A stretch of 64,000 nucleotides of DNA, from contig JBLHNG010000001.1 of the NCBI GenBank assembly GCA_047621685.1, forward strand, positions 16,986 through 80,985, read 5' to 3'. Below, piece after piece: positions 17,983-64,000 of this stretch (position 1 is its first letter; the number at the start of each line of letters is the position of its first letter). Below the pieces are notes generated by a model. It was not told the DNA's origin. It did no database searches and was given only the letters and a program-made list of their open reading frames with translations. A program made the translations under genes and the position numbers. The DNA comes from Myxococcota bacterium. Lineage in GTDB: Bacteria; Myxococcota_A; UBA796.

Positions 17983-18498
17983 ATGAACCGAGCCCTGCTG
18001 ATGTTGATGATGGCGGCACCCCTGTCCGCCGGTGCCTACCCAGAGATGATCCCGCTGGAGGAGACCTCCCTGGTCGGCCGTGCGGCCCCGGAGGTTGATC
18101 TCAAGACCCTCGGCGGAGAGGCCTTCGTGCTCTCAGAGGCGAAGAACACGCCGGTCGTTCTGGCGTTCTGGGCGAGCTGGTGTGGCCCCTGCCGCAACGA
18201 GATGCCCGCCCTGATCGAGCTTCAGAAGGCCCGCAGCGATGTGCGCATCGTGATGGTCAACGTCGACCGGGATCGCCGCGACGCCCAGCGCTTCCTCTCC
18301 CAGGTCGGCATCACCCCCGAAGACGCCGAGATCGCCCTGGACAGCGAGGCGCTCGCGCTGGGGGCCTACGGGGTGATGAGCATGCCGACGACGTTCCTGG
18401 TCGACGGCAGCGGCGTCGTGAAGTTCCACAAGGTCGGCTACAGCACTGAGAAGGGCCTCACCGAGCTGATCGAAGCGATCGAGGGGGTGAAGCCATGA
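17983..18498 (+). CDS. Periplasmic TlpA/ResA-like thiol:disulfide oxidoreductase
   Basis: Signal peptide, FWASWCGPCRNEMP (CxxC thioredoxin-fold motif). Confidence 0.85.
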   Translation: MNRALLMLMMAAPLSAGAYPEMIPLEETSLVGRAAPEVDLKTLGGEAFVLSEAKNTPVVLAFWASWCGPCRNEMPALIELQKARSDVRIVMVNVDRDRRDAQRFLSQVGITPEDAEIALDSEALALGAYGVMSMPTTFLVDGSGVVKFHKVGYSTEKGLTELIEAIEGVKP

Positions 18499-26774: not shown

Positions 26775-26783
26775 TGCGTCCCT

Positions 26784-26822
26784 GACATCTGAAGCCGACA
26801 TCTGAAGCCGACATCTGAAGTC
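26784..26822. repeat. 3 x 13-bp direct repeat GACATCTGAAGCC in the spacer between the two giant paralogues
   Basis: Read directly: copies at 26784, 26797 and 26810. The last copy ends ...GTC. Confidence 0.8.
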
Positions 26823-26890
26823 AGAAAACTCTCCCCTCTCCGACTGGCTGGTTGCTCGATTACAGTGGGAGTACCGATTCGGAGGCTACC

Positions 26891-29800
26891 GTGCTCGCCC
26901 TGCTCCTTGCTATGCCGTCCCTGGCAGCGACCCTCACAGTCTCCGCTTCGGGGACCTACACCACCATCCAGTCCGCGGTCACGGCCGCCTCGGATGGGGA
27001 CACCATCTCGATCTCGGCAGGGACCTACATCGAGTGTGTGGATCTCGGCGGACTCGATCTCATCCTGATCGGCGCCTCTACCTCTTCGACCACCGTCGAC
27101 GGTGGCGGGTGTTCTGCGGGTGCATTTTCCATGACCGGGGGCGAGACCGCGGAGATCAGCGACCTCACCATCACCAACAGTGGCTACTCTGCGGTGGTGG
27201 TCGAGAGCAGCTTCCTGACCCTGGACAATGTGGTGATCGAGTCCTCTGGCTCGGTGAGCTTTGGCCGGGACGGCGGCGCGATCTTTGCCGACAGCAGCTA
27301 CATCGAGATCACCGACTCCGTCTTCGACAGCAACGGCGGCTACTACGGCGGCGCGATCGCGCTGGAGTCTGCCTCCGCCCTGGTCGTCGATGATGTGACC
27401 TTCACTGACAACCTGGGCCAGTTCGGTGCGGGCATCTCGCTGAAGGATGCCTCATCCGCCGACATCACCAACACCACCTTCGAGGGCGGACTGGTGAGCG
27501 TGACGGGCTACGGCAAGGGCGGCGCGATCTACAGCTACTACGACGTCGAAGTGACCATCGACAGCTCGACGTTCACCGACAACGATGCCGCGACCTTCGG
27601 CGGTGCCATCTCCATGGAGAGCGGCGGCAGCCTGGTCATCACGAGCTCGATCTTCGACAGCAACGAGATCCTCACCTCGCTGGCTGCCCCCAGCAGCGGC
27701 GGCGCGATCTACACCTACGACCTCGATGAGATGTCCATCTCAGACTCAGAATTCACGGATAACGTCGGTTATTTCTATGGCGGTGCGGTCTTCGCCAACA
27801 ACATGAACGATGAGACCGAGATCAGCGACTCGATCTTCTCTGGCAACGAGATTCAGAGCAAGCGCGGTGGCGCGGTCGAGTTCTCCGCGGGCTCAGATCT
27901 GGTGATCACCCGCTGCACCTTTGAGGACAACATCTCCGCAGAGGGCGGCGCGGCGCTGAGTGTGTACCAAAACGTCACACTGGAAATTACGGAATCCACC
28001 TTCTCCAGAAACACCAACTCCTCCACCCGGGATGCCTACGGCGGCGCGATCTTCGTCTATGACGACGACAACGGCGAAGACCTGACCATCACCGACAGCA
28101 CCTTTGACGACAACGAGGCTGCCCTCTCCGGTGGCGCACTCTACGTCTATGGAATGGACACGGTCGATATCAGCGGGACCGCCTTCCGCAACAACGCAGC
28201 GAGCGGGGTCGGCAGCTCGTCGGTGTACTACGGCGGCGCAGCCAACTTCTACGATGTCTCCGAGGTGAACATCACCAACGCCGATGTCTGTGGAAACGAG
28301 GCAGACTACGCCGGTGGCTTCTATATGGAGCTGATCGACGCGGTCTCGATGAAGAACTCCACGATGGTGGAGAACACCGCCGCGTTTGAGGGCGGCAGCG
28401 GCTACATCCTGGACGTCACGGATGTGGTGATTGAGAACAACACCTTCATCGCAGCGACCGGCGGCGGGCTGTACTTCGGCCAGACCGCGGTGACCTTCAC
28501 CAACAACGTCGTCGCCTACACCACCGACACCTACGGGGTGTACGCCGAGGACTCCGACACCGACACCGACTCCGACTTCACCTACAACGACTGGTACGAC
28601 AACGGAACCGACGACACCGACGGCTACTTCAGCTTCTCGACCACCAGCGACGGCAACATCACCGATGAGCCGGAGTTCAACGACTACTCCGAAGACGGTG
28701 ACTGCACCAACGACGACCTCACCCCCGCCATCGGCTCCCCCCTGATCGACGCCGGCGACCCCGCCATCACCGATCCCGACGACTCCGACAGCGACATCGG
28801 CGCCTATGGTGGTCAGGGCAGCACTGCAGTGGATGAAGACGGCGACGGCTACTACATCAACACCGACTGCGACGACACCGACAGCGACATCAACCCAGGG
28901 GCGACCGAGATCTGTGATGGGGTGGACAACGACTGCGACGGCACCGTCGACATCGGCAGCGACGACGGCGACACCTACTACGCCGACGACGACGGCGACG
29001 GCTTCGGCGACGCCGACGACAGCAGCTTCCTCTGCGAAGAGACCAGCGGCTACGTCACTGACGACACCGACTGTGACGATGGTGACAGCGACATCAACCC
29101 CGACGCCGAAGAAGTCTGTGACAATGAAGACAACGACTGTGACGGCGACATCGACGGCGAAGATGCTACCGATGTGACCACCTGGTACCTCGACTACGAC
29201 TCCGATGGCTATGGCGGGAGTGCCTACACCGAGACCGCCTGCGATCAGCCCTCCGGATACGTCGCTGACAGCACCGACTGCGACGACGGCGACTCCAGCA
29301 TCAGCCCGGGTGCTGATGAGTACTGCGACGGCGACGACAACGACTGCGACGGCGACACCGACGAGGACTCCGCTCTCGATGCCACCACCTGGTACATCGA
29401 CTTCGACAGCGACGGCTACGGGGTCGCAACGTTCACTGAGATCTCCTGCGATGAGCCTTCCGGCTTCGTCGACAACATCGACGACTGCGACGACACCGAC
29501 AGCAGCGTGAGCCCGGATGCTGACGAGGTCTGCGATGGCATCGACAACAACTGTGACGGCACCACAGACACCGATGCCATCGATCTCGCGACCTGGTACG
29601 CCGACGCCGACGGCGACACCTACGGCGACCCTTCAGACAGCGAGATGACCTGCGAGCCCTCGTCCGGCTACGTCGACAACGATGACGACTGCGACGACGA
29701 CTCCGCTGAGGCCCTGCCCGGCGGCACCGAGATCTGTGACGGACTCGACAACGACTGTGACGGCAGCACCGACGACGGAAGCGCAGACATCTCAATGTTC

Positions 29801-30451
29801 TACGCGGACTTTGACGGAGACGGCTACGGCGACCCGGATAGCCTCACCGAGGCATGTGAGGCCCCGGGCGGCCACGTCGAGAACGGCGAAGACTGCGACG
29901 ACGGCGTCAGCTACTCCTACCCTGGCGCCGATGAGGTCTGCGACGACCTCGACAACGACTGCGATGGCGAGATCGACGAAGACGCCATCGACATGCTCAC
30001 GTACTACGCCGACAGCGACGACGACGGCTACGGCGACGCCAGCAGCGTGATGATGTCCTGCGACCCGCTCTCCGGCTTCGTGCTCGACAGCAGCGACTGC
30101 AACGACGACGCAGATTCCGCCTACCCCGGCGGCACCGAGATCCCCTACGACGGCATCGACAACGACTGCGACGGCAGCGATCTCACCGACGTCGATGGCG
30201 ACGGGTATGAGTCGGATGTGATCGGTGGAGAAGACTGCGACGATGACGATGATGTCATCAACCCCGAGGGCGACGACATCGCCGGAGACGGTGTGGACCA
30301 GGACTGTGACGGGTCTGATACACCGCTTGACGGCTCGGAAACGGACGACGACAAGGGCTCTTGTAGCTATGTCGGCGGTGGAGATGCCGGGCTCTGGGGG
30401 CTGCTGGCGGTCGCCGGTCTCCTCCGGCGTCGGCGCCGCACAGAGGCGTGA
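26891..30451 (+). CDS. Giant secreted surface protein, paralogue of 22686..26774: beta-helix/PMP repeats + MopE-type putative metal-binding Cys/Asp repeats + C-terminal sorting tail
   Basis: GTG 26891 preceded by GGAGG gives VLALLLAMPSLAATLTV, parallel to the paralogue N-terminus (the ORF track starts at TTG 26852). GGAI[YF] repeats. About 7 repeats of DCDD.D..[IV].P.A.E.CDG.DNDCDG..D. Tail GSCSYVGGGDAGLWGLLAVAGLLRRRRR. Confidence 0.85.
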   Translation: MLALLLAMPSLAATLTVSASGTYTTIQSAVTAASDGDTISISAGTYIECVDLGGLDLILIGASTSSTTVDGGGCSAGAFSMTGGETAEISDLTITNSGYSAVVVESSFLTLDNVVIESSGSVSFGRDGGAIFADSSYIEITDSVFDSNGGYYGGAIALESASALVVDDVTFTDNLGQFGAGISLKDASSADITNTTFEGGLVSVTGYGKGGAIYSYYDVEVTIDSSTFTDNDAATFGGAISMESGGSLVITSSIFDSNEILTSLAAPSSGGAIYTYDLDEMSISDSEFTDNVGYFYGGAVFANNMNDETEISDSIFSGNEIQSKRGGAVEFSAGSDLVITRCTFEDNISAEGGAALSVYQNVTLEITESTFSRNTNSSTRDAYGGAIFVYDDDNGEDLTITDSTFDDNEAALSGGALYVYGMDTVDISGTAFRNNAASGVGSSSVYYGGAANFYDVSEVNITNADVCGNEADYAGGFYMELIDAVSMKNSTMVENTAAFEGGSGYILDVTDVVIENNTFIAATGGGLYFGQTAVTFTNNVVAYTTDTYGVYAEDSDTDTDSDFTYNDWYDNGTDDTDGYFSFSTTSDGNITDEPEFNDYSEDGDCTNDDLTPAIGSPLIDAGDPAITDPDDSDSDIGAYGGQGSTAVDEDGDGYYINTDCDDTDSDINPGATEICDGVDNDCDGTVDIGSDDGDTYYADDDGDGFGDADDSSFLCEETSGYVTDDTDCDDGDSDINPDAEEVCDNEDNDCDGDIDGEDATDVTTWYLDYDSDGYGGSAYTETACDQPSGYVADSTDCDDGDSSISPGADEYCDGDDNDCDGDTDEDSALDATTWYIDFDSDGYGVATFTEISCDEPSGFVDNIDDCDDTDSSVSPDADEVCDGIDNNCDGTTDTDAIDLATWYADADGDTYGDPSDSEMTCEPSSGYVDNDDDCDDDSAEALPGGTEICDGLDNDCDGSTDDGSADISMFYADFDGDGYGDPDSLTEACEAPGGHVENGEDCDDGVSYSYPGADEVCDDLDNDCDGEIDEDAIDMLTYYADSDDDGYGDASSVMMSCDPLSGFVLDSSDCNDDADSAYPGGTEIPYDGIDNDCDGSDLTDVDGDGYESDVIGGEDCDDDDDVINPEGDDIAGDGVDQDCDGSDTPLDGSETDDDKGSCSYVGGGDAGLWGLLAVAGLLRRRRRTEA

Positions 30452-30902: not shown

Positions 30903-32096
30903 TTAGCCAGCAATGTTCCACGTGGAACACACCACATGCAGCGCATGCAGTCCCGCCAGAAGACGCCGACCAGCAGCAGTGGGCTGGCCCTTCTCAGCAA
31001 CAGTAGCCAGCCCACGGGCGTTGCTCTCCAGCACCGCATCCCGCCGACGACGAAAGTGCGGAGTCTGACTGATCGGATGCCCAAGCGCCTCCAGGCGGGC
31101 ATGCATCGCCGCGACCGGAACGAAGGCATGAGCAGCCAGAAGCACGCCGGACAGCGGACGGAGGTCTGGCCGAACCGGAGAAGCGGTCCACTCGCTTCGA
31201 CCGTTCTTGAGCACCGGATCCAGCCACATCAGCGTGTTCAGCCGACTGTGCTGGGTCTCATGCACGATCGCTTCGGCCAGGGTCAGCGGATCGGGGTGTA
31301 GCGTCATCCAGGCCACCCCCGGGGCCTCCAGGTAGGACGCTGACAGGTGCATCTCCGCCTCAAAGCCCACCGGCACCAGCCGCTCCAGGCTCAGCGGAAG
31401 CTCTCGCCACCACTCCGGCAGGGCCACCGCAATCAGCGCCAGCGCCTCAGACAGCGCAGCCACCCACTCCGTCGCAGCCTTCCCGCCCAGGCTCACCGCG
31501 TTGCCAGCTTTGTCGGGGTGGTCTTCGAGCATCGAGAGCGGGTTGGTGTCCCGGGTGCTGAGGTGCAGTCGGGGGAGGTCGGGGTGCAGCGGGTGGTAGG
31601 GGCGGCGGGCGTCTTGGGGCGGGACGGAGAGCCGGGTGCCGTCGGCCAGGGCCAGCGACAGCCCGCTCGGATCGGCGACCACCACTGAGAGCGGTGCATC
31701 GATGGCGAAGCCCAGCCGCGGTGCGGACAGCCCCGGAGCGGGGTGGTCCCAGAGGATCGCCTCGGTGAGCGCACGGGCGGGCAGGGCAGCGAGGAGGTCT
31801 GGGCCGACAGCGGCGAGCTGGGCGATCGCATCGACCTGGGGGTGCGCCAGCGACAGCAGGCGCGGCAGCACATCGGGGGCACCGATGGCGGAGAGGGTGG
31901 CAGCCGGGTGGCGTCGGGCGGTGTCGGTGAGCACCGGACGCAGTCGAATCAGCGCACTTCGCAGTGTCGGCGGAAGGCCATCGAGGGGCCAGGTCAGCAG
32001 CCGACGCAGGGCCAGGAGGCGAACCTTACGCACGAGCCGGGGCCAGGAGCTGTCCGATGCCGGGAGCGTGAGAAAGGCGGAGGGGAGGTCGAGCAT
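30903..32096 (-). CDS. HExxH-motif protein, aKG-HExxH-type peptide beta-hydroxylase-like (TIGR04267-like)
   Basis: LAEAIVHETQHSRLNTLMWLDP motif in a ~400-aa soluble protein, transcribed divergently from a radical SAM operon. That context is typical of this family as I recall it. Confidence 0.7.
   Translation of the reverse strand: MLDLPSAFLTLPASDSSWPRLVRKVRLLALRRLLTWPLDGLPPTLRSALIRLRPVLTDTARRHPAATLSAIGAPDVLPRLLSLAHPQVDAIAQLAAVGPDLLAALPARALTEAILWDHPAPGLSAPRLGFAIDAPLSVVVADPSGLSLALADGTRLSVPPQDARRPYHPLHPDLPRLHLSTRDTNPLSMLEDHPDKAGNAVSLGGKAATEWVAALSEALALIAVALPEWWRELPLSLERLVPVGFEAEMHLSASYLEAPGVAWMTLHPDPLTLAEAIVHETQHSRLNTLMWLDPVLKNGRSEWTASPVRPDLRPLSGVLLAAHAFVPVAAMHARLEALGHPISQTPHFRRRRDAVLESNARGLATVAEKGQPTAAGRRLLAGLHALHVVCSTWNIAG
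30910..30931. promoter_or_regulatory. Copy A of 22-bp motif GCAATGTTCCACGTGGAACACA (perfect 16-bp palindrome TGTTCCACGTGGAACA at 30914..30929)
   Basis: Identical 22-mer also at 50253..50274. Read directly. Confidence 0.4.
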
Positions 32097-32150: not shown

Positions 32151-33482
32151 ATGGGTATGGATCACGCCGAGGAGAACCACCGCACCAAGGGGCTGACCCG
32201 GCTGACCATGGCCTGCAATGAGCGGTGTCCGTTCTGCAACGTGCCGATGGAGGACTACCCTCGCCTCACGCCGCCGGAGTCCGAGGTCCTCGCCGAGCTT
32301 CAGAGCTTCTTCGACAGCGGCGCGCAGACCCTGACCATCTCCGGTGGCGAGCCCACCCTGCTGAGGCGCCGGCTGCTGTCGCTGGTCGACAAGGCGCGGC
32401 AGGGCGGCATCCGCTCCATTGAGCTGCAGACCAACGCTGTGCTGATCGATGGGGCCTACGCGACAGATCTCGCTGAGGCTGGGCTGACCAGTGCGTTCGT
32501 CTCGCTGCTCTCTGAGAGCGCTGAGCTGCACGACCACCTCGCTGGCCTCCCCGGCGCCTTCCCCCGGTGCCTCGCGGGCATCGACGCGCTGATCGCGGCG
32601 GGGGTGTCCGTGACGCTCAACCCGGTCATCGCCTCTGCGACCCAGGCGCGGGTCGTGGACTACATGCGCTTCGTCGTGCAGCGCCTGCCGGCAGTGCGCT
32701 CGATCTCCCTGTCCGCAGTGCAGCCCCATGGCCGGGCCGCCGACAACCTCGATCTCCTGCCCGACTACGGCGTGCTCGCTCAGCAGCTTCCGGAGGCCCG
32801 ACAGGTCGCTCAGGCTGCTGGGGTCACCGTGCTCAACCCCTACTGCGGGCTGCCGCTGTGCGTGGGCTGGAGCGGTGACCTGGGGCAGTGTGTGGAGGCC
32901 GCAGAGGCCCGTGACGGCGGCTGGCGGGCGCGTCCAGGCATCGACAACCAGGGCAACAAGTCCCACGGCGCGGTGTGTGGTCCCTGCGTGCTGCGTCCCT
33001 GGTGTGGTGGCGCCTGGCATGCCTACTGGCAGCATCGGGATGGCGCGGGCATCGCACCCCCGGCCGAGCGGATCCCGCCGTGGCGTGCTGGAGCCTCGAC
33101 GGCCCCCTGGCAGTCGGTGGTCTCCGCGCCCGGTGGCTTGACCGATGCCGCTCGGACCGCACTTCAGTCCGCCGAGACCCCGACGATCTGGCTGTGGACG
33201 GATCGGCTGACCCGGGCAGATGTCGTGCCGCTGCTGACCTCCCGCTGCACTGCGGTGGGGCTGGAGGTGGTGGCTGACGGGCTGGCCTCCGGTGCTCGCC
33301 CCGACTGGCTCCGTCCGCTGCGGGCGCTGCTCCGTGGTGGCTGTGCGGCCCACCTCGCGGTGCGTCGGCCGCTGCTGGCAGGGGATCGTCAAGCGCTGGC
33401 AGCGCTGGCGGACCGGCTCGGGGTGACCGGAGTCGATGTGCTTCCCGAGAGACAGCATGCTTCCAGCACGGCAGGGGCCTGA
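32151..33482 (+). CDS. Radical SAM protein with partial SPASM/twitch-like C-terminal Cys motif (rSAM1)
   Basis: LTMACNERCPFCNV (CxxxCxxC), ISGGEPTLL, ELQTNAVLI, CGPCVLRPWCGG. Start taken at ATG 32151 (GTG 32142 is also possible). Confidence 0.85.
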   Translation: MGMDHAEENHRTKGLTRLTMACNERCPFCNVPMEDYPRLTPPESEVLAELQSFFDSGAQTLTISGGEPTLLRRRLLSLVDKARQGGIRSIELQTNAVLIDGAYATDLAEAGLTSAFVSLLSESAELHDHLAGLPGAFPRCLAGIDALIAAGVSVTLNPVIASATQARVVDYMRFVVQRLPAVRSISLSAVQPHGRAADNLDLLPDYGVLAQQLPEARQVAQAAGVTVLNPYCGLPLCVGWSGDLGQCVEAAEARDGGWRARPGIDNQGNKSHGAVCGPCVLRPWCGGAWHAYWQHRDGAGIAPPAERIPPWRAGASTAPWQSVVSAPGGLTDAARTALQSAETPTIWLWTDRLTRADVVPLLTSRCTAVGLEVVADGLASGARPDWLRPLRALLRGGCAAHLAVRRPLLAGDRQALAALADRLGVTGVDVLPERQHASSTAGA

Positions 33483-33483
33483 C

Positions 33484-34947
33484 ATGAGACAGCGACTTCC
33501 CCAGCCGATGTGGGTCGACATCGGCGGCACGACCCGAAGCCCCGAGCGTCTGGATGTGGTGCCGGCCCCAGCGCGCTCCACGGAAGGCCTCCGCAGTGAC
33601 ATCGCCGCCGCCGGGCGTCACTGGATGCTCACCGGCGGCGAGCCCACCCTGCGTGCAGACCTCTTAGCGCTGCTCTCCGGTGGCGGAATCCGCACCGACG
33701 GCCTCCTCCTCAGCCGCCCTGATGCCCTCGCCACCCTCCAGCGCGCCGGACTGAAGCGCGTGCGCATTCGCATCCACAGCAGCCGTCCCGACGCCCACGA
33801 CTGGCTCTCTGGAACGAAGGGCTCGCTTCGGCACGCCCTGAGGGGGCTCCAGGCATGCACCCGCGCGGGGATTCCCGCGGAGGTCGAGATCGTGCTCACC
33901 CGACCCACCATCGGCCACCTCGACGAGACCGTCGCTCTGGTGACCCGGCTGGGTGCTCGGGGGGTGGCGCTGCGTCGGCTCACCGCTCAGGGGACTGCAG
34001 CGGCGGACTTCATCGCCCTCTCCCCGCGCCTCGGTCTGCTGAGTGCCCCCCTGGAGGATGCAATGGCCGCAGCGGATGCGGCTGGTGTTCCGGCCTGGAC
34101 TGAGGGAGTGCCGACCTGCATGGCGCCCGCCTCTCGGCTGCGAGCGACGCCGACCGGGCGCACTCCGGGATGTGCAGACTGCCCGGCGGACTGCCCCGGC
34201 TACCCAACCGACTACGCAGAGCGCTTCGGGCTCGCGGAGCTGTGGCGGGTGGCTGGAGCGCCGTCCCGGGAGCAGATCCGGGTGGTGATCTCCCCAGACG
34301 AGGCCACCCGGGATGTCCGCCGACGCCTGGTCGCTGCTGCAATGTGTCGTCCAGAGACCCTGCGGGTGGTCGGGGCCGCATCTCACCCCGCACGGTCCGA
34401 CCTGCTGCGAGAGCTGCTGCGCCTGTCGGTCTCCAGTGTCGAGCTGTGTGGAGTGATGGATGGGCTCGCCACCCTCTCCGGGGCTGATCAGCTCCGGCTG
34501 CGTGGATTTGCCCGCATCGACGCCGCCCTCCTCGGCAGCACCGCAGCAACCCACGATGCCGCGGTCGGTCGTCCCGGTGCGTTTGATGCGGTGAAGCAGC
34601 TGCGCAATGTGACGTGTTACGGCATCGTGCGATCCGCTGAAGAGGCCGCTGCGTTCGTCTCCACAGGGGTCACCGATCTGAGGCTCGCCGAGCCGGGCGG
34701 CACCCTCACCTCGCTGTCTGGCATCGCCGCGCTGGCCCCTCTGATCCCGCCTTGTCTTGGTGGCAGCGGCAGCAGCCCGCCCCCTGCCGAGGACTTTCAC
34801 GGCTCCACCCCCGCCGGTCGGCAGGGCTGCTCCACAGACCGCATCGGCGCCACCACCCCCTGCCCCCACGCCGCGCGCTGTTCCGCAGCCGATCGCTGCC
34901 CGGGGCTCGCGGTTGGCTGGGATGCAGAAGGCGTGACACCGCTGTGA
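33484..34947 (+). CDS. Radical SAM-fold paralogue lacking the CxxxCxxC motif (rSAM2, probably catalytically degenerate)
   Basis: Retains MLTGGEPTLRADL, RIRIHSSRPDAHDWLSGTKGSL and CADCPADCPG. The N-terminal 60 aa contain no Cys (MWVDIGGTTRSPERL replaces the cluster loop). ATG lies 1 nt after the rSAM1 stop. Confidence 0.7.
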   Translation: MRQRLPQPMWVDIGGTTRSPERLDVVPAPARSTEGLRSDIAAAGRHWMLTGGEPTLRADLLALLSGGGIRTDGLLLSRPDALATLQRAGLKRVRIRIHSSRPDAHDWLSGTKGSLRHALRGLQACTRAGIPAEVEIVLTRPTIGHLDETVALVTRLGARGVALRRLTAQGTAAADFIALSPRLGLLSAPLEDAMAAADAAGVPAWTEGVPTCMAPASRLRATPTGRTPGCADCPADCPGYPTDYAERFGLAELWRVAGAPSREQIRVVISPDEATRDVRRRLVAAAMCRPETLRVVGAASHPARSDLLRELLRLSVSSVELCGVMDGLATLSGADQLRLRGFARIDAALLGSTAATHDAAVGRPGAFDAVKQLRNVTCYGIVRSAEEAAAFVSTGVTDLRLAEPGGTLTSLSGIAALAPLIPPCLGGSGSSPPPAEDFHGSTPAGRQGCSTDRIGATTPCPHAARCSAADRCPGLAVGWDAEGVTPL

Positions 34948-35008
34948 TGCTGCCACTCACCCTGGAGACAGAGGGCAAGTGGCCCCCACCTGCGATAGGA
35001 TCCGCTCA

Positions 35009-36814
35009 ATGAACCTTCGCGACACGATGCTGGAGCGCGAGCAGATCGCCAACCGCCGCAAGCACTGGGTGCGTGCAGTCACCGCCTGCAACAGCCGCTG
35101 TGTGTTCTGCCTGGACATGGACACCCCCCGCAACGTCTTCCTGCCCATCGAGGAGGTCCAGGCGGAGCTGCAGCGCGGTCGGGAGGAGCTGGACGCCGAC
35201 AAGGTGATCATCTCCGGCGGCGAGGCATCGCTGCATCCGTCGTTCCACGAGCTGGTCCGCTATGGACGCAGCATCGGCTACGACCGGGTCCAGACCGTCA
35301 CCAACGGCTGGAACTTCGCCGAGCGGGACTTCTACCGAGAGGCCATGGCTGCCGGGCTCGGCGAGATCACCTTCAGCCTCCACGGCCACACCGCCGAGCT
35401 GCACGACCGGCTCACTCGCCACCACGGCTCGTTTGCCCGGCTGATGAAGGGCATGATCCGGGCCATCCGCGATCCCCGCGGCCCGATCGTCAACGTCGAT
35501 GTGGTGATCAACAAGCAGAACGTCGGGGTGCTCGACCGCATCATCGAGCTGTGCATCTCCGTCGGCGTGACTGAGTTCGACCTGCTCCATGTCATCCCGC
35601 AGTCTGAGGCATACCGGAATCGTGAGGACCTGTTTTACGATGTTCGCGACCACATGGACGTGCTGCATCGGGTCTTCCGACTCAACCGCCATCCCCGGCT
35701 GGTGATCTGGACCAATCGCTTCCCGATCTCCTACCTGGAGGGGCTCGAAGACCTCATCCAGGACCCCCACAAGATGCTCGACGAGGTCAACGGCCGCCGC
35801 TTCCAGGTCCGCCGCTATCTCGACACCGGCGAGCCCCTCGACTGCCGCCAGCAGGAGCGGTGCGTGCACTGCTTCATCGAGCCGTTCTGCACCACCATGG
35901 ACCGGGTCATCACCACCCAGCACGCCGGGGGCTTCGAGGTGTGGCAGGGCGAGACACAGGGAGAGGATGCGGGTGAGCTGCCGTTTGGCTGCACCCGCTG
36001 GGGACAGACCGCCGCCTCCTGGGACGACGTGCAGTGGCCGGATGTCGGCGGGCTGGAGCTGACCGGAATGGCCGCTGAGCCCATCCCCCGGGCGCTGCCG
36101 GTTCCGGTTCGGATGATCGCCGATCACCCCGACCAGCTCACCGCCTGGCTGAGCGGTCCGCTGCCAGCGCTCGTCGAGGTCGAGGTGGTGCTCAACCAGG
36201 TGACCGCCCCCTGGCTGATGAAGCACCGCGAGACACTGCTCCCACTGCTCGACAGCCTCCGCATTCACCAGCCCTCCCACACGAAGCTGGCCGGGGCCAT
36301 GAAGCAGGATGTCCGCAATCCAGGTGGATTCTTCACCCGACTCGCGCTGCCGATCCGGGTCAGCGGTCTGCCCGCCTGCCTCACCACTGGTGCGGTGGTG
36401 GTCTCGCCCGTTGCTCGCCTCAGTCCGGCCCTGTTCGACCCCGAGCTGGGCCGCCTGGACTCCCGGGCACTCTCTGAGCACCACATCGAGCAGAACTACC
36501 GGGCGAAGTCCGAGCGCTGTCGGGATTGTGCAGTGACCAACGCCTGTGACGGCATCCACGTCAACATGATCCGCGACCAGGGGCTCGCCCTCGCCCGCCC
36601 CCTCGCGCAGGCCCCTGCCGTACACCCGCCCATCGGGGTTCGCATCGCCGAGGGCTGTCCCCCGCTGCCCCCCGCAGAGAGCCTGCCTGGGTTCGCGCCC
36701 CCCCAGGCCCCACCCCGCGATCCCCTCTCCGTCATGGCCGAGCAGATAGACGCCCGCCGCGAGGCCAAACGGGTGGCCCGGAAGAAGATGCTCGCTGATG
36801 CAAGGGAGAGCTGA
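35009..36814 (+). CDS. Radical SAM protein with two SPASM-like Cys motifs (rSAM3)
   Basis: VTACNSRCVFCLD, ISGGEASL, FSLHGHTAELHDRLTRHHGSF, CVHCFIEPFC, CRDCAVTNACDG. Alternative GTG start at 34979. Confidence 0.85.
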   Translation: MNLRDTMLEREQIANRRKHWVRAVTACNSRCVFCLDMDTPRNVFLPIEEVQAELQRGREELDADKVIISGGEASLHPSFHELVRYGRSIGYDRVQTVTNGWNFAERDFYREAMAAGLGEITFSLHGHTAELHDRLTRHHGSFARLMKGMIRAIRDPRGPIVNVDVVINKQNVGVLDRIIELCISVGVTEFDLLHVIPQSEAYRNREDLFYDVRDHMDVLHRVFRLNRHPRLVIWTNRFPISYLEGLEDLIQDPHKMLDEVNGRRFQVRRYLDTGEPLDCRQQERCVHCFIEPFCTTMDRVITTQHAGGFEVWQGETQGEDAGELPFGCTRWGQTAASWDDVQWPDVGGLELTGMAAEPIPRALPVPVRMIADHPDQLTAWLSGPLPALVEVEVVLNQVTAPWLMKHRETLLPLLDSLRIHQPSHTKLAGAMKQDVRNPGGFFTRLALPIRVSGLPACLTTGAVVVSPVARLSPALFDPELGRLDSRALSEHHIEQNYRAKSERCRDCAVTNACDGIHVNMIRDQGLALARPLAQAPAVHPPIGVRIAEGCPPLPPAESLPGFAPPQAPPRDPLSVMAEQIDARREAKRVARKKMLADARES

Positions 36815-37872
36815 TGGCCAACCTCGGCTACCTCCAGCTCACCCGCAACTGCGTCCAGCGCTGCCGGTTCTGCAGCAACCCGCCCACCGGGGTCGAGCTG
36901 ACCGAGCCCCAGATGCGGGGCCTCATCGATGAGCTGGTCGACCTGGGCTACGACGGGGTCATCCTGACCGGCGGCGAGCCCAGCTACTCCCCGCTGCTGT
37001 TCCCCGCCCTGAAGTACGCCACCGAGAAGGGGCTGTACAACCGGATGATCACCAACGGGCAGCGTCTCGCGGAGCCGGACTTCTTCCAGAAGTGCGTCGA
37101 TGCCGGGCTGTCCCACATCCACGTCTCGCTGCACTCCTGCCGTCGGGAAGTCCACGACTACATCACCCGCTACCCCGGGGCCTATGATGTGCTCGTCCGC
37201 TGCCTGGAGTTGGTGCCGAAGATGGGCATCACCTGTGACATCAACACGGTAATAAACACGTATAACGCTGATCATCTCCATGAGACGGTCCAGTGGCTCT
37301 GTGAGCGGTTCCCGTTCATCCGCCACTTCGTCTGGAACAACATGGACCCGGACGGCAACCGCGCGGAGGACAACCCCGACTGCATCGCGTTTCACCATGA
37401 GTTCCAGGTCAGCCTGGAGCTGGCGATGGACTACCTCTCCCGCACCGGACGCACCTTCCGGGCCGAGCGGGTTCCGCTGTGCTTCATGCGGCGCTACGCC
37501 CACTGCTCGACTGAGACCCGCAAGATCGTCAAGGAGGAGGAGCGCTGCATCCAGTTCCTCGACAACAAGGGCTTCGTCCACCAGCTGGAATTCCTGCACG
37601 GCAAGGGAGACGCCTGCAATGCGTGCCGCTGGGACGGCATCTGTGCAGGCATGTTCTCGATGGCGCGGACTTTCGATGAGCGGGAGCTGTCGCCGATCTT
37701 CGAGGATCCCCTCCCGGTCATTCGGGCGGTGCTCGGAGAGGAGCCCACCCCGGCCCTTCTGGAGCGGATCGAGGCCAGGAAGGGGCGCCGAAGCACCACC
37801 GAGCAGCCCGACGAAGAGACGCGGGGTGCGTACCGGATGCTGCCGCTGTTCCGCTCAGCGGTGAGAGAGTAG
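36814..37872 (+). CDS. Radical SAM protein with SPASM-like Cys motif (rSAM4)
   Basis: LTRNCVQRCRFCSN, LTGGEPSY, ITNGQRL, VSLHSCRREVHDYITRYPGAY, CNACRWDGICAG. ATG overlaps the rSAM3 stop (TGATG). Confidence 0.85.
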   Translation: MANLGYLQLTRNCVQRCRFCSNPPTGVELTEPQMRGLIDELVDLGYDGVILTGGEPSYSPLLFPALKYATEKGLYNRMITNGQRLAEPDFFQKCVDAGLSHIHVSLHSCRREVHDYITRYPGAYDVLVRCLELVPKMGITCDINTVINTYNADHLHETVQWLCERFPFIRHFVWNNMDPDGNRAEDNPDCIAFHHEFQVSLELAMDYLSRTGRTFRAERVPLCFMRRYAHCSTETRKIVKEEERCIQFLDNKGFVHQLEFLHGKGDACNACRWDGICAGMFSMARTFDERELSPIFEDPLPVIRAVLGEEPTPALLERIEARKGRRSTTEQPDEETRGAYRMLPLFRSAVRE

Positions 37873-38552
37873 CGCCACGGCGATGTTGTCCTCACCGCCA
37901 TGTTCCAGGGCAGCGGTGGTCAGGTTGATCGCGGCCTGTTGGGCGGTGCCCCCGGTGGCGATCTGGCCGACCTGATGGGCGGAGAGAGTGGGGATGTTGT
38001 AGCGGCACTCGGGCAGCCCATCGGATGCCAATATGATCCGATCACCAGCCTGTAACGAGTACTCTCCCGTGCTCACTGACAGCAACCTCCAGTCCCCGAG
38101 GTAGCGCCCTTCCAGGGGGTTGAGCACCACCGTCTGCTCCGAACGGAGTCGATAGAGCCGGCAGTCTCCGATGGAAGCCCAGCTGAGCCAGTCCTCCTGA
38201 ACCACCACCGCCAGCAGCGCGCAGGCTGAGGAGCCAAGCAGCACCCGCCGGTTGATCTTCGAGAGCCGCCCCTTCAGCCAGCCGATCGGATCGTTGTCTG
38301 GGGGGGAGGACATCGCGGCATACAGCAGGGCGTCGACCGCAGTCTCCGCAGAGCTGCGCCCGAAGTGAGCGTCTGCGACCACTGCGACGGAGGCACCGGA
38401 CACGGTGACCACACCGCAGGAGTCTTCGTTGGGATCCTGCTTCGGCGCCGGACTCTCCAGACCCCGACACAGGGCAAGCCCCCAGCCGCCGTGCTCGGCG
38501 TGCTGGATGGTGCCATATTCGATGCAGTCACGCCCATGAAGGACGGCAGGCT

Positions 38553-38556
<4 letters not shown>
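37855..38556 (-). CDS. PP2C-family Ser/Thr protein phosphatase
   Basis: NEDSCGV, VADAHFG, ILASDGL and GGEDNIAVALL motifs. Confidence 0.85.
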
Positions 38557-39560
<1,004 letters not shown>

Positions 39561-47747: not shown

Positions 47748-47777
47748 CCCAGGCAGTATAGGACCACCCGCGCGGGG

Positions 47778-59518: not shown

Positions 59519-60694
59519 ATGAGGGCCATGCTCGGGGATCGCAGTCTGTTCCCGGACCTCTCCTGGGAGGTCTACCTCAACCACGCTGCGATCTCTCCGC
59601 CCTCCACCCCGGTCCTCCAGGCTGCAGCAGCGGTGTCGCAGTCCTATGCATCACAGGGTGTTACGGCATTCCCGATTTGGATGGAGTCCCGGGAGGTTCT
59701 GCGTGGAAAGCTCGCCCGCCTCATCCATGCCGCACCCGAAGACATTGCCCTGACTGCCAACACCACCGCCGGGGTGATCGCGGTGGCCAATTGTTTCCCG
59801 TGGAACAATGGGGACGGTGTGGTGGTGTTCTCTGGGGAGTTTCCCACCAACGTCACCCCCTGGCAGCAGGCTGCGCGCAGCTTCGGGCTTCGGCTCACTC
59901 AGCTCTCCCTGGATGGCTTCGGGGATGGCAGCGGCGCTGGGCTGGCTCGGCTGGAGGCGGCGCTGAAGCAGGGCGTGGTGCTGGTGGCGGTCAGCGCGGT
60001 GCAGTTCCAGACCGGACTGGCCATGCCGATCAAGGCGATGGCCGACCTCGCCCACCGCTACGGTGCTCAGCTGTTCGTGGATGGCATCCAGGCGGTCGGT
60101 GCGGTCGAGCTGGATGCACGCGATGTGGACTACCTCGCTGTTGGCTCTCACAAGTGGCTGATGGGCATCGAGGGCTGTGGGTTCCTCTACGTTCATCCCG
60201 ATCGCATCGGCGCGTTGGTGCCGCGCATGGCCGGCTGGTTGTCCCATGACGACGGGCTCGGTTTCTTGTTCAACGGCGCGGGACACCTCCGCTATGACCG
60301 GCCGATTCGCCGTCGGGCCGACTTCTTAGAGGCCGGGGCATACAACTCGGCGGGCTTCCAGGCGCTGCTCGCCTCGGTGTCTCTCATCGAACACCTTGGT
60401 GTTACGGCGATCTTTGCGCACATCACCGCCTACCTCGACGCCCTGGAGCTCGGCCTGCTCGCCCAGGGCTTCACCAGCCTTCGAGCACCCGATCCCGCTG
60501 CGCGCTCGGGCATCCTCAGTGTGCTTCCGCCAGAAGGGGTGGATCTCCTCCAGCTCGCTGAGGCCCTCGCCGCTCGTGGCATCGGGGTGACCACTCCTGA
60601 CGGGCGCCTGCGGTTCTCGCCACACTGGCCCAACAGCCTCGATGAGGTCCCGGTGGTTCTGGCGGCAACCGAGGCCGCGATCAGATCGGCGTGA
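59519..60694 (+). CDS. Class V aminotransferase / cysteine desulfurase-like PLP enzyme
   Basis: YLNHAAISP, ALTANTT, and SHKWLMG (PLP-Lys context). The 3' end overlaps the convergent rSAM gene by 14 nt. Confidence 0.8.
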   Translation: MRAMLGDRSLFPDLSWEVYLNHAAISPPSTPVLQAAAAVSQSYASQGVTAFPIWMESREVLRGKLARLIHAAPEDIALTANTTAGVIAVANCFPWNNGDGVVVFSGEFPTNVTPWQQAARSFGLRLTQLSLDGFGDGSGAGLARLEAALKQGVVLVAVSAVQFQTGLAMPIKAMADLAHRYGAQLFVDGIQAVGAVELDARDVDYLAVGSHKWLMGIEGCGFLYVHPDRIGALVPRMAGWLSHDDGLGFLFNGAGHLRYDRPIRRRADFLEAGAYNSAGFQALLASVSLIEHLGVTAIFAHITAYLDALELGLLAQGFTSLRAPDPAARSGILSVLPPEGVDLLQLAEALAARGIGVTTPDGRLRFSPHWPNSLDEVPVVLAATEAAIRSA

Positions 60695-61721
60695 GCCCGT
60701 CGTCGCCCCAGATGTCCAGGTAGTTCTGCCAGACTCCCTCGCACAGGTCGGCCCGGGTGCAGGTGCTGCAGGCTTTGGGGTGGCCCTTGAGGTCGTGGCG
60801 CTTGCGGTCCTGCCAGTTGAATCGGGCGCGACCGCCGTCGATTCGGGTCACGCCGTCGACCTCACCGTCGCCGTGCTTGTCGCTTCGGATCGAGCAGTCC
60901 GTAGACAGGTCGCGGTACTCGCCCATGTACTTCTTCAGCAGCCGCTCGCTCCGGCGTAGCTCCACCGGCAGCACACAGAGGGGGAAGCCGCCGAAGGTGA
61001 AGGTCTTCTTGAAGTGGAACTCGTTGAGCAGGATCGCTTTCTGGAGGATGGGCACGACCTTGTCGTACTGTGGGGTCAGGGAGCGGCTGCCCTCGGCGTA
61101 GCCCTCGGGGCGCACGAAGTTGACCCGGATGTCATCCAGCTCCAGCTCATCATAGAAGAACCGCATCATCTTCGGCAGATAACGGTAGTTCCAGCCGTTC
61201 AGGACGACGTTGATGGCGAGCCCATCGGGCAGGTAGCCGGCGGCACGCTTGGTGTTGAGGTAGCGGATGGCGGTGCACTTCTTCTCGAAGTTGCCAGGCA
61301 CCCGGGTGAGCCGGTCTTCCAGCGAGGCGGTGTGGCCATGCATGGAGATGGTGATTCGGGTCAGCCCGGCGTCGAGGATGCGGTCGGTGAAGTGCGTGAG
61401 GCGCAGCTTGGTGGCGTTGGTGGCGATGGCGATGCGGGTGAAGCCGATCTCCTTGCCATAGGCCACGGACTGCACGATCTTCGGGTAGGTCGTGGGCTCT
61501 CCACCCAGAAAGCCCAGCGAGCGGTGCCCGGCTGCGTGCCACTGCCGGATCTCCGCCTGCATCTGGTCAAACGGCATGTAGCTGCGGTCTTCTTTCTTGG
61601 GCAGACCGTCGAGGCAGAACACGCAGCGGTTGTTGCACGCCTTGCCGATGTTGATCTCGACGTTGCGGCGGACATCCCGGAGGGGGTTGTACAGCTGGTT
61701 GGCGGGGTGTTCTTCAGCCAT
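60681..61721 (-). CDS. Radical SAM protein with SPASM-like Cys motif (rSAM-C, third maturase of the HxS operon)
   Basis: IGKACNNRCVFCLDG, LGGEPTT, IATNATKL, ISMHGHTASLEDRLTRVPGNF, CSTCTRADLCEG, C-terminal ...DGLTPI. Confidence 0.85.
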   Translation of the reverse strand: MAEEHPANQLYNPLRDVRRNVEINIGKACNNRCVFCLDGLPKKEDRSYMPFDQMQAEIRQWHAAGHRSLGFLGGEPTTYPKIVQSVAYGKEIGFTRIAIATNATKLRLTHFTDRILDAGLTRITISMHGHTASLEDRLTRVPGNFEKKCTAIRYLNTKRAAGYLPDGLAINVVLNGWNYRYLPKMMRFFYDELELDDIRVNFVRPEGYAEGSRSLTPQYDKVVPILQKAILLNEFHFKKTFTFGGFPLCVLPVELRRSERLLKKYMGEYRDLSTDCSIRSDKHGDGEVDGVTRIDGGRARFNWQDRKRHDLKGHPKACSTCTRADLCEGVWQNYLDIWGDDGLTPI

Positions 61722-61730
61722 AAGCTCAGC

Positions 61731-62690
61731 CTATCCCAGAATCGGGGTCAGATCGGTGGTCGGCCACTTGCGGGCATATTCGTCGAACACCCCCATGCAG
61801 ACGCCGCGAAGGGTGCAGCCCTCGCACTGCGCGACATGGACTCGCTTGCGGTCAGGTGCCCAGGAGTAGAGGCCCTCGAACTTCACCGAGCCGGGGTGAG
61901 CGGTCCACTCCACGGTCACCCGGGGATCCCAGTGCAGATCGTTGGACAGCGCGCGGTGGCTGCCCAGCAGGCACATCGGCACCCCGAAGAAGCGCAACAC
62001 GGCGGTCTCTGCGGCGGACACGGAGCGGGGCAGGACATCGGCGAGCACACTCAGCGGCACCGCGAGGTCTTCGTAGGCATCGAGCCCTGCGCCCTCGGGG
62101 GTGGTGTTGGAGACCACGATGAGCTTCGCGCCCAGCGAGTCCGCCAGGGCGATGGTCTCGGGGAGCTTCTCAGCATTGTGACGGGTGATCACGGTGTTGA
62201 TGAAGGCTCCGAAGTCTCCTCGAAGCGCGATACAGCGGCGGATTGCCTCGGTGACCCGGTCGAAGCTGCCCTCGCGGCGGGCGAGGGCGTCGTGGGTGGC
62301 GGCATCTGGGCCGTGCAGGGAGAACAGGCCCTCGTCGAGGTACTCGATGACCGTCTCTGCGAAGCCTGGTCGGGACAGCATGGTGCCGATGGTGCCGATG
62401 GAGGTGCGCATCCCCAGCTTCTTGGACAGCCGGAGGACGTCGAGAAAGCGGGGGTGTATCGTCGGCTCACCGCCGGTGAAGTGCACCCCGTCTCCGCCCC
62501 GGGCCGCATGTCGACGCAGCACGGTCGCCGCCCGCCCCCAGGTCACCGGGAAGCGCTTGAAGCGCTCCATCCGGTGCTCCTCGGAGCAGAACACGCAGCG
62601 CTCCGGGCAGGTGTAGGTCAGGTGCAATTCCAGCCGGCGCATGATCTGACCCTCAGGGCCGATCCAGGGAGTGAGGTTCTGCTCGGTCAT
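61731..62690 (-). CDS. Radical SAM protein with SPASM-like Cys motif (rSAM-B)
   Basis: LTYTCPERCVFCSE, FTGGEPTI, FSLHGPDAATHDALARREGSF, CEGCTLRGVCMG, C-terminal ...TDLTPI. ATG 62690 overlaps the upstream stop (ATGA). Confidence 0.85.
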   Translation of the reverse strand: MTEQNLTPWIGPEGQIMRRLELHLTYTCPERCVFCSEEHRMERFKRFPVTWGRAATVLRRHAARGGDGVHFTGGEPTIHPRFLDVLRLSKKLGMRTSIGTIGTMLSRPGFAETVIEYLDEGLFSLHGPDAATHDALARREGSFDRVTEAIRRCIALRGDFGAFINTVITRHNAEKLPETIALADSLGAKLIVVSNTTPEGAGLDAYEDLAVPLSVLADVLPRSVSAAETAVLRFFGVPMCLLGSHRALSNDLHWDPRVTVEWTAHPGSVKFEGLYSWAPDRKRVHVAQCEGCTLRGVCMGVFDEYARKWPTTDLTPILG

Positions 62691-63649
62691 GCCGCTCCCC
62701 TCCGCTTTCGATAGGCACGCAGCGCGGGGTAGAGCCCGCGACACAGCCGGGTCAGCTCTGCATCGACCGCCATGGTGGACTGCCACACCTTCTCTGGGAG
62801 GTGAGTCGCCAGCAGCCCGTTGATCGCCTCGGCTTTCTCGGCGAGGGCCTCGGGAGTGGGCGGGTCATCGAGGGTGCCGATGGTGGTCTGATCGCGGAGG
62901 TGGTCCAGGGTGCCGGAGAGCCCGACATTGGAGGGGTGGATGGTGCGGTCGGAGTCGACCACGAAGCCGGTGTTGAAGAACGGGGTGGGTGCCTGGGTGA
63001 ACAGGTTTCGCAGGTAGAAGTGTCGACCGGAGCGCCAGCGATCCTCGATGATCCCTCGGATGGCGTCGAAGGAAGCCGCCAGCGCGGCGAGCTGGTGGGT
63101 CTTCCAGGGGATGTAGTAGCCGGGGAGCAGGTTGAACCGGTAGAATCCAAGCGACAGCAGGTGGCTCAGGTTGTCGGCGGCCCGGCTGGCGGTGGCGGGC
63201 GGGATGGTCTGGGTGATGACCAGCCGGGTGAGGGTGAGCAGCGACTCACGCAGGGTCATCAGGTGGTCGTAGGCGTCCGCGACTCCAGGCAGTGCCCGAC
63301 GCATTCGGCGGTGATCTTCGGGCGCACCGTCCATGGAGATGGTCAGGATTCCCTTCTTGTAACCTCGGAGATACTCGATCCACTCCGGCGTGAGGCCGAG
63401 ACCGTTGGTGGAGAGGTAGACCCGCCGGATCTCCGGACGATCTCGGGCGGCCTCCATCGCGGCCCGGACCACCTCAGGGACCAGCAAGGGCTCGCCGCCA
63501 AACAGCTTGACGTCACCGCCGCCGTATCGATCGGCGAACAGAGACACCGCCAGCCGGGCGTCGTCCGGTGTCAGGGAGGGCCAGCCGTCTTTTGCCGTGG
63601 GGCAATACGAGCAGCGGAGGTCACAAGCCCGGGTGACGGTGAGAATCAC
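62687..63649 (-). CDS. Radical SAM protein without C-terminal Cys cluster motif (rSAM-A, first maturase after the HxS precursor)
   Basis: VTRACDLRCSYCP (CxxxCxxC), LFGGEPLL, LSTNGLGL, ISMDGAPEDHRRMR. GTG start 12 nt after, and in the same frame as, the precursor stop. Confidence 0.85.
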   Translation of the reverse strand: MILTVTRACDLRCSYCPTAKDGWPSLTPDDARLAVSLFADRYGGGDVKLFGGEPLLVPEVVRAAMEAARDRPEIRRVYLSTNGLGLTPEWIEYLRGYKKGILTISMDGAPEDHRRMRRALPGVADAYDHLMTLRESLLTLTRLVITQTIPPATASRAADNLSHLLSLGFYRFNLLPGYYIPWKTHQLAALAASFDAIRGIIEDRWRSGRHFYLRNLFTQAPTPFFNTGFVVDSDRTIHPSNVGLSGTLDHLRDQTTIGTLDDPPTPEALAEKAEAINGLLATHLPEKVWQSTMAVDAELTRLCRGLYPALRAYRKRRGAA

Positions 63650-63661
63650 AGGTGAACCGGT

Positions 63662-64000
63662 TTACCACTGCCCGTGGGAGCCGTGGGAGCCATGGGAGCC
63701 GTGAGAGCCGTGAGAGCCGTGAGAGCCGTGGGAGCCGTGGGAACCATGAGAGCCATGAGAGCCGTGGGAACCATGAGAGCCGTGGGAACCATGAGAGCCA
63801 TGAGAGCCATGGGAGCAGTGAGAGGCATGAACCACGCCGGCGGTCGCTGGATCCGCGAGCAGGGCATCGGCCTTCAGCAGCAGCTCGCCGGAGTGATCCT
63901 TGCGGCAGGCCTGCTGGCGCTCAGATGCCTGGAGGTGGTCGGTGGCTTTGCGGGTGAGGGTGGGCAGCTTGGGAGCAGCCTTCTCGGTCCTGGTGCTGTC
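63662..64000 (-). CDS. His-Xaa-Ser repeat protein (HxsA-like RiPP-type precursor), 5'-truncated by the window edge; absent from the ORF track
   Basis: Manual translation of the minus strand (codons phased on 63662): ...KAAPKLPTLTRKATDHLQASERQQACRKDHSGELLLKADALLADPATAGVV-HAS-HCS-(HGS)x15-HGQW-TAA. The frame is open to base 64000. All inter-repeat nucleotide differences are synonymous in this frame only. Confidence 0.75.
   Translation of the reverse strand, partial: DSTRTEKAAPKLPTLTRKATDHLQASERQQACRKDHSGELLLKADALLADPATAGVVHASHCSHGSHGSHGSHGSHGSHGSHGSHGSHGSHGSHGSHGSHGSHGSHGSHGQW
63677..63829. repeat. 17 tandem 9-bp units encoding HxS triplets
   Basis: + strand units [ga]ga-[ga]c[ca]-[ga]tg, counted one by one: 15 HGS, 1 HCS, 1 HAS. 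Confidence 0.95.

Follow-up and report, generated by a model that had tools for sequence, protein, structure and literature searches.

A stretch of 64,000 nucleotides from a Myxococcota bacterium (assembly GCA_047621685.1, contig JBLHNG010000001.1), referred to below as the window, contains seven genes of the radical S-adenosylmethionine (SAM) family (rSAM). Six of them, designated A to F, encode an intact cysteine triad CxxxCxxC. The seventh, designated T (33484..34947, + strand), encodes a protein of 487 amino acids (aa) and is the gene under study; from its translation, Pfam and Foldseek matches, AlphaFold2 model and family alignment it was assigned as a cluster-less twin rSAM-fold protein. 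Homologous proteins are denoted by P-numbers (for example, P0017) and loci around homologues by L-numbers (for example, L001).

Gene T lies within a run of four genes transcribed in the same direction. It is preceded by A (32151-33482, +), an active-looking rSAM gene with the triad CNERCPFC, and followed by B (34979-36814, +), encoding a 611-aa rSAM protein with the triad CNSRCVFC, and C (36814-37872, +), encoding a 352-aa rSAM protein with the triad CVQRCRFC; within the module, C is the best conserved. Only one base separates the stop codon of A from the ATG of T (TGAcATG), 31 nucleotides lie between T and B, and B and C overlap by one base. The other three rSAM genes, D (60681-61730, −, triad CNNRCVFC), E (61731-62864, −, triad CPERCVFC) and F (62687-63661, −, triad CDLRCSYC), form an F-E-D trio (60681..63661, −) located 23 kb away from A-T-B-C. 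A divergently transcribed gene upstream of A (30903..32096, −) encodes a protein with an aKG-HExxH-type peptide beta-hydroxylase domain (TIGR04267, 97.6 bits, cutoff 40). In the NCBIfam scan, no model reached its cutoff for any of the seven paralogues.

The G+C content of the window is 62-70%, and the open reading frame (ORF) of T has a G+C content at third codon positions (GC3) of 0.77, which is of coding type. The longest possible ORF begins at an upstream ATG at 33436, but the start was placed at 33484, because homologues begin at MRRRLPEP. The translation contains all motifs quoted in the initial annotation of this gene, namely, MLTGGEPTLRADL, RIRIHSSRPDAHDWLSGTKGSLRHAL, CADCPADCPG, CSAADRCPG...GVTPL and LRVVGAA...VELCGVMDG. 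That annotation had described T as one of seven rSAM paralogues, without cysteine in its N-terminal region and without the triad, embedded among active paralogues and translationally coupled to them; the gene set, the spacing given above and the protein itself, in which the first cysteine is residue 125 and CxxxCxxC is absent over the whole length, agree with this description.

The model PF04055 (Radical_SAM) matches T with 35.7 bits (cutoff 29.5), residues 44-150 corresponding to profile positions 46-163 of 166. The match begins at profile position 46; therefore, the first 45 positions, which carry the triad, have no counterpart in T. In an alignment of the seven paralogues, a comparison that the initial annotation had recommended, the sequence IGGTTR----SPERLD of T occupies the column of the ACNxRCxFC-like triads of the other six proteins, while GGEP, T71 and G113 are common to all seven. 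In the loop following strand beta-1, the site of CxxxCxxC in the paralogues, both the family and the paralogue alignments show GGTTRSPERLD for T (33520..33555, +); R18 of this loop is kept in at least 90% of family sequences, and 'RLD' is the family consensus.

The GGE motif, which contacts SAM in active rSAM enzymes, is retained as GGEPTLRADL (33634..33663, +), the most conserved stretch of the family. In the family alignment, G51 and G52 are invariant and E53, P54, T55, R57, D59 and L60 are kept in at least 90% of sequences. Other invariant or near-invariant positions are D72, G73, H105, D106, W107, G113, R140, E148 and R182.

Fold and twin-domain origin of T

The AlphaFold2 model of full-length T, built with the family alignment, has a predicted local distance difference test score (pLDDT) of 88.2 and a predicted template modelling score (pTM) of 0.65. 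Structure prediction and comparison with rSAM barrels had also been recommended, and the Foldseek matches of the model in the PDB are headed by rSAM enzymes: SkfB (3e-9), GDGT-MAS (4e-9) and BlsE (6e-9), followed by viperins, Mmp10, NifB, PFL-AE, MoaA, PqqE and SuiB. E-values for SkfB, GDGT-MAS, BlsE, viperin, MoaA and PqqE range from 3e-9 to 1e-5. The family profile of T aligns to BlsE, MoaA, SkfB and PqqE from the GGE strand onward. The model thus predicts a partial triosephosphate isomerase (TIM) barrel, the (beta-alpha)6 core of rSAM enzymes.

Similar to the rSAM twitch/SPASM proteins SkfB, BlsE, MoaA and PqqE, T has the partial (beta-alpha)6 barrel, the GGE motif, an 'HS..DAHD' beta-4 region and a Cys-rich module after the barrel. 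Unlike them, it has no CxxxCxxC, hence no SAM-cleaving cluster, and its domain is duplicated in tandem, the second copy being without GGE as well.

This second half barrel (34267..34683, +) is rSAM-like, more degenerate, and without both triad and GGE. The initial annotation had suspected that the C-terminal half was a further degenerated copy of the same fold, and several comparisons of this half (residues 262-487, analysed alone) support that proposal. Its profile aligns in register with that of the N-terminal half (hhalign probability 87.8%, E = 3.3e-6), 'GGEPTLRaDL' facing 'l-HPaa-eLL' and 'HSaRaDAHDWLvG-pGA' facing 'L-GpdA--HDA--g--GAf'. Searched against all PDB sequences, the C-half profile matched BlsE (E = 5e-4) and SkfB (E = 0.008). 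Its AlphaFold2 model (pLDDT 88.5, pTM 0.84) shows a beta-alpha repeat, with BlsE as the best Foldseek match (E = 1e-4); generic TIM barrels and weaker rSAM matches rank below it.

The strongest evidence for a twin origin comes from comparison with a sister clade that shares the two-domain layout and the 'PPxRxGRPxAT' linker between the domains. Five proteins of this clade, P0170, P0171, P0179, P0184 and P0187 (460-514 aa), have T as their best match in the window, with alignments that reach beyond the first half of T and end near residue 355-376. The N-terminal triad is kept in all five (e.g., CNNRCRYC), and in four, P0170, P0179, P0184 and P0187, a second triad 'APCxxxCxxC' stands at the exact start of the second half. 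In the same column, an 'ACxxC' remnant with the first Cys replaced by Ser is present in 7 of 29 members of the T family, and a deletion is found in T's own subgroup. Taken with the profile and model comparisons of the C-terminal half, these sequences indicate that T descends from a twin rSAM enzyme with a CxxxCxxC triad in each half, and that both catalytic sites have decayed, the second further than the first.

More distant twin rSAM proteins of about 610 aa, P0044-P0065, were considered as active ancestors of T and rejected, as they are closer to A and belong to a different multi-rSAM cluster (L090). One or both triads are kept in the sister clade and in P0044-P0065, and none in T. FbiC (CofG+CofH) is a known two-domain rSAM enzyme.

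Repeated or degenerate rSAM domains were also seen in other proteins. Residues 301-539 of B match the profile of the T N-half (hhalign 82%, E = 1e-5), and B thus consists of an active rSAM domain followed by its own degenerate one; it ends in a CxxCx5C motif. A graded series is seen from the twin-active sister clade through the half-dead B to the fully dead T. The C-terminal extension of A was tried as a further pseudo-half, and the match was not significant (hhalign probability 4%). In L090 (5779-9860), a 619-aa twin rSAM protein with both triads, of the P0064 family, is encoded beside a 734-aa rSAM-ferredoxin (Fer2) fusion and a 340-aa rSAM protein. P0181 and P0192, found by exhaustive search in low-G+C organisms, are chains of 1054-1070 aa with three complete rSAM domains each, the triads lying at about 25, 470-485 and 750-772; the best matches of these domains are B, A (D in P0181) and D, respectively, and the proteins resemble several enzymes of T's system joined in a single chain.

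Two sets of four cysteines are conserved in T. The first comprises C212, C230, C233 and C237 (34117..34194, +), is present in 27-28 of 27-29 family sequences and aligns with PLC...CxxC..C[GA]G of the active paralogues A and C. Because A and C carry this set besides their triads, it is most readily understood as a putative auxiliary Fe-S site of the N half and not as a substitute for the triad. The second set, C424, C460, C466 and C472 (34753..34899, +), a candidate second auxiliary Fe-S site, is kept in 22 of 24, 22 of 24, 16 of 19 and 23 of 23 sequences, respectively, and is wholly missing in P0025, P0027, P0037, P0039 and P0041. PF13186, the Pfam SPASM model, gave no match to T. Since the two sets survive, T is probably still an Fe-S protein.

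Conservation and gene neighbourhood

The initial annotation had noted two circumstances under which its description would fail: a frameshift or assembly error hiding an upstream segment with the triad, and orthologues that retain the triad, making T a strain-specific pseudogene. The former is ruled out, because gene A, with its own triad, fills the space up to one base before T. As regards the latter, orthologues in other genomes are also without the triad. A word-indexed search gave 65 homologue clusters, of which 42 align along T (29-76% identity); the triad is missing and GGEPTLR is kept in all 42. An exhaustive profile search gave 29,450 proteins at E <= 0.001, mostly ordinary rSAM enzymes, and 682 representative clusters at E <= 1e-30, the top 150 all being at E <= 1e-63. 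Among the 91 new sequences with a complete N-terminus within this top 150, a triad before GGEP was found in only 4 and in none of the remaining 87. A scan of genome contigs with the family alignment, for which GGEPT[LM]RxDL was the sole pattern, was swamped by ordinary rSAM genes and returned no true orthologue.

The orthologue in L001, a Myxococcota metagenome-assembled genome, is 75% identical to T. Against it, the ratio of nonsynonymous to synonymous substitution rates (dN/dS) is close to 0.17 for T (0.169; N half 0.153, C half 0.146), the corresponding values of A, B and C being 0.134, 0.142 and 0.057. Gene T is under purifying selection, much like its neighbours. The reading of T as a decaying pseudogene, or as a product of frameshift or mis-assembly hiding the triad, could draw on its GC3, weaker than that of the neighbours (0.77 vs. 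0.82-0.89), and on its being the most divergent gene of the operon. Against these stand the substitution ratios of the whole gene and of both halves, an ORF that is intact and full-length in all loci examined, hundreds of homologue clusters with the same triad-less N-terminus, the complete occupation of the upstream space by A and the confident AlphaFold2 model. This reading is already refuted and retains almost no probability.

The gene order around T is likewise conserved. A divergent HExxH gene followed by A-T-B-C was found around T homologues in distant loci of Myxococcota-like type, namely, in L001, L005, L007 and L009, which belong to unrelated assemblies, and in L004, where C is displaced by about 4.5 kb; the HExxH protein occupies the same position in all five. 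L002 contains T-B-C and no A, and in L006 T is followed by a 368-aa gene and then B. In every locus with a cluster-less T and a known flank, B is the next gene after T or follows it closely. Overlaps of 4 bp between stop and start codons occur at the A-T junction in L005, L007 and L009, and at the T-B junction in L002, L005 and L007. Identities between the window and L007 are 38% for T, 60% for A, 68% for B and 77% for C, and T is always the most divergent member of the module. Faster evolution of T than of A, B and C is as expected for a putative non-catalytic subunit.

Two natural fusions involve T. In L008, a single continuous ORF of 915 aa encodes A (CNERCLFC) running directly into T, followed by B and C. 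P0156 in L093 (896 aa) consists of the N half of T and the start of its C half, followed by full B (54.5% identity); most of the second half of T is dropped in this fusion.

A number of further genes were annotated around the module. In the window, two very large proteins of 1362 and 1199 aa are encoded just upstream of the rSAM module (22686-30451, +) and contain 12 and 7 MopE-type putative copper-binding motifs, respectively, plus Chlamydia-PMP and beta-helix repeats; their genes are syntenic in L001 and not in more distant loci. A single 645-aa ORF (18450-20387, +) combines VKOR, a DsbA-like thioredoxin and an FGE-sulfatase domain (formylglycine-generating enzyme-like), an unusual three-domain fusion. 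A gene for a 233-aa PP2C-type phosphatase-like protein lies on the opposite strand, where it overlaps C at the 3' end of the latter, and is followed by a gene for a 335-aa protein, the C-terminus of which is weakly similar to sorting domains of the myxosortase or Synerg-CTERM type (both within 37855-39560, −, and both syntenic in L001).

Relation to His-Xaa-Ser genes

The end of the window contains the 3' part of an HxsA-like gene (63662..64000, −), immediately upstream of F-E-D and running off the window end. It ends in a (His-Gly-Ser)n array, ...HGSHGQW*, with about 16 uninterrupted His-Gly-Ser repeats at 63677-63829 (−) followed by 'HGQW*'. HxsA-like (HGS)n proteins are also encoded in L009, L093 and L094, beside HxsD- and HxsB-like genes. 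Genes for HxsD and HxsB were not found by tblastn within the window and may lie beyond base 64000.

Genes of the His-Xaa-Ser (HXS) type adjoin the module, or its variant that keeps triads, in five loci (L002, L005, L009, L093 and L094). In the first four of these, T-B-C (A-T-B-C in L005 and L009) directly precedes an HxsD-like gene (PF27806), a gene of roughly 80 aa, an rSAM gene of 500-510 aa, labelled HxsB-like by gene order and size only, and a gene for the small (HGS)n protein. The array '...AQHCSHGSHGS...HGSHGQW' was read in L009 and L093; L005 gave a partial match only, and L002 has an unannotated gap. Next come orthologues of F and E, joined in L002 by one of D, with the exception of L005, in which the contig ends just after the repeat gene. 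The F-E-D trio is located 1-5 kb from the module in L002, L007 and L094, and F and E are at this distance in L009 and L093. In L094, P0184, a T-like protein of the sister clade with its triads kept, is encoded in a cluster with HxsD, HxsB, HxsA, F, E, D, two M16 peptidases, HExxH, B, C and a ferredoxin; gene A is absent from this cluster. The contig of another clade member, P0179, is too short to show neighbouring genes.

Probable accessory genes of uncertain membership in the window are those for a MauG-like di-haem peroxidase (43574-44863, −) and a pair of M16 peptidases (45317-47876, −). An M16 pair also adjoins the T-like gene in L094, and both the MauG-like gene and the M16 pair are syntenic in L001. 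The MauG-like protein gives a weak match to the 'His-Xaa-Ser system-associated MauG-like' model (84.6 bits, cutoff 340).

Where no HXS genes adjoin the module, another arrangement was seen. Downstream of A-T-B-C in L007 (16292-18002) and L008 (9471-10986), a Cys-rich protein of about 190-200 aa is encoded, followed by a C39-like peptidase, the C-terminal part of which repeats the sequence of the Cys-rich protein. These two could be an alternative substrate/protease pair.

The canonical HXS system consists of HxsD-HxsB-HxsC-HxsA and blocks the entry of phage DNA, as shown in E. coli (PMC13128918). In it, HxsC acts in complex with HxsD, a small non-catalytic partner (PMC13128918). Of the known canonical systems, 99.7% are in Pseudomonadota, and HXS function is known only for the E. 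coli-type system (PMC13128918). Among NCBIfam models, HxsC (TIGR03977) is the second match of T, after AhbD (58.0 bits), with 48.2 bits (cutoff 267.9); HxsC4 (NF038332) gives 36.2 bits (cutoff 500), and for the T-family member P0017, HxsC is the first match, below the cutoff. T resembles HxsC in its setting, having HxsD-, HxsB- and HxsA-like genes in the neighbourhood, and differs from it in lacking the cluster. PADLOC 2.0 gave no match for T, and only generic viperin-like rSAM matches for the other paralogues.

Judged by gene neighbourhood, the window and the related loci appear to hold an enlarged HXS-type variant, of which no published description was found. Its putative components are the six active rSAM enzymes of the window, to which related loci add an HxsB-like one, a single dead rSAM protein, an HExxH hydroxylase-like protein, M16 peptidases and, as substrate, a very long (HGS)n protein. 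This variant may have a defence function. The link to an HXS-type system and the Fe-S sites of T are points that go beyond the initial annotation.

Proposed role of T

Taken together, T is best described, on sequence grounds, as a conserved pseudo-enzyme with two tandem rSAM half barrels, each apparently followed by a small Cys-rich module. With both triads lost, it could hold no SAM-cleaving [4Fe-4S] cluster and start no radical chemistry; reductive SAM cleavage is predicted to be absent, as the cluster ligands are missing. Its two four-Cys sets most likely still bind auxiliary Fe-S clusters, and the retained GGE motif of the first barrel may still bind a ligand. Encoded in the same tightly coupled operon as A, B and C, T would be produced in stoichiometric amounts with them and would most likely bind to A and B as a subunit without catalytic activity that holds or presents substrate in its dead barrels, relays electrons between clusters, or does both. 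The likely substrate of the whole set would be the (His-Gly-Ser)n HxsA-like protein of the linked system, as suggested by the neighbourhood. Radical-SAM-type machines with unequal paralogous subunits, one of them not catalytic, are known from Dph1-Dph2; fold and cluster binding there are unrelated to those of T, and the analogy is functional only.

The reading that we favour, and which is somewhat better than an even chance, is that T is a non-catalytic Fe-S subunit bridging A and B, a putative partner of active rSAM enzymes. The initial annotation had suggested a non-catalytic role in scaffolding, substrate recognition or complex formation; the conserved operon position, the overlapping stop and start codons and the A-T and T-B fusions fit this suggestion, which stays at the level of inference. 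Several points weigh against the bridging role and its HXS setting. Gene A is not adjacent to T in L002 and L006, and each fusion, known from one metagenomic contig, might have arisen from an indel error. GGEPTLRxDLP is the most conserved part of the family, is not obviously needed by a pure scaffold and hints at a small-molecule site. The HXS link is one of neighbourhood only, the two modules being 23 kb apart in the window, and the canonical four-gene HXS system is without such a pseudo-rSAM protein (PMC13128918).

As the GGE strand is so strongly conserved, a ligand site may have been retained, and the main rival reading is that T is still an enzyme, binding SAM or a related ligand through the GGE pocket for a non-radical step, or performing radical chemistry with a cluster held by its own four-Cys set or supplied by a partner in trans. 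The near-invariant GGEPTLRxDLP, the strong conservation of H105, D106, R140 and E148, purifying selection as strong as on the active neighbours, and the known use of cluster ligands outside the canonical triad for rSAM-type chemistry in ThiC and Dph2 speak for it. We consider it unlikely, given that the four-Cys set aligns with the one that A and C possess in addition to their triads, so that it would be auxiliary and no replacement, that the first 124 residues of T are without Cys, and that T evolves faster than A, B and C. A role mainly in electron transfer is a little less probable again: here, T's two auxiliary [4Fe-4S] clusters would serve as wiring for a reductant or between the clusters of A and B, and no substrate would be bound. 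The eight conserved cysteines in two sets would suit such a module, as would the small ferredoxin gene after B-C in L094, which suggests that the system uses extra Fe-S carriers; the absence of the C-terminal Cys set from five family members, the loss of most of the second half of T in the T-B fusion, and the size of two whole barrels, a large scaffold for a wire, argue against it.

A bolder reading, which we regard as speculative and rather doubtful, is that T is the obligate pseudo-enzyme hub of an undescribed eight-component rSAM machine. Its two dead barrels would grip and thread the long (His-Gly-Ser)n protein and its two auxiliary clusters would supply electrons, allowing A, B and C, and perhaps D, E and F, to modify many repeats processively. 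If this were true, T, acting in an enlarged HXS system of Myxococcota, would to our knowledge be the first pseudo-enzyme of the rSAM type for which a mechanistic role is defined.

At least one family of rSAM look-alikes is already curated under a 'pseudo' name, the 'pseudo-SAM/SPASM protein' TIGR04347, which, judged by the family name, represents the same concept as T. T is not a member of it (41.9 bits vs. a cutoff of 525) and differs in lineage, in its twin architecture and in gene context. Literature searches on pseudo-rSAM proteins found no experimental paper on any cluster-less rSAM member. What is new here is the twin architecture with both halves degenerate, the graded loss of triads, the fusions that name partners and the link to an enlarged HXS-type system.

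The rSAM enzymes are one of the largest enzyme superfamilies, and the T family offers a clean natural series within it, with both triads in the sister clade, a two-Cys remnant of the second in some members and none in T. All members of this series are encoded in one conserved operon and kept under purifying selection, and the partners are indicated by natural fusions; therefore, the function of a dead rSAM domain becomes directly testable.

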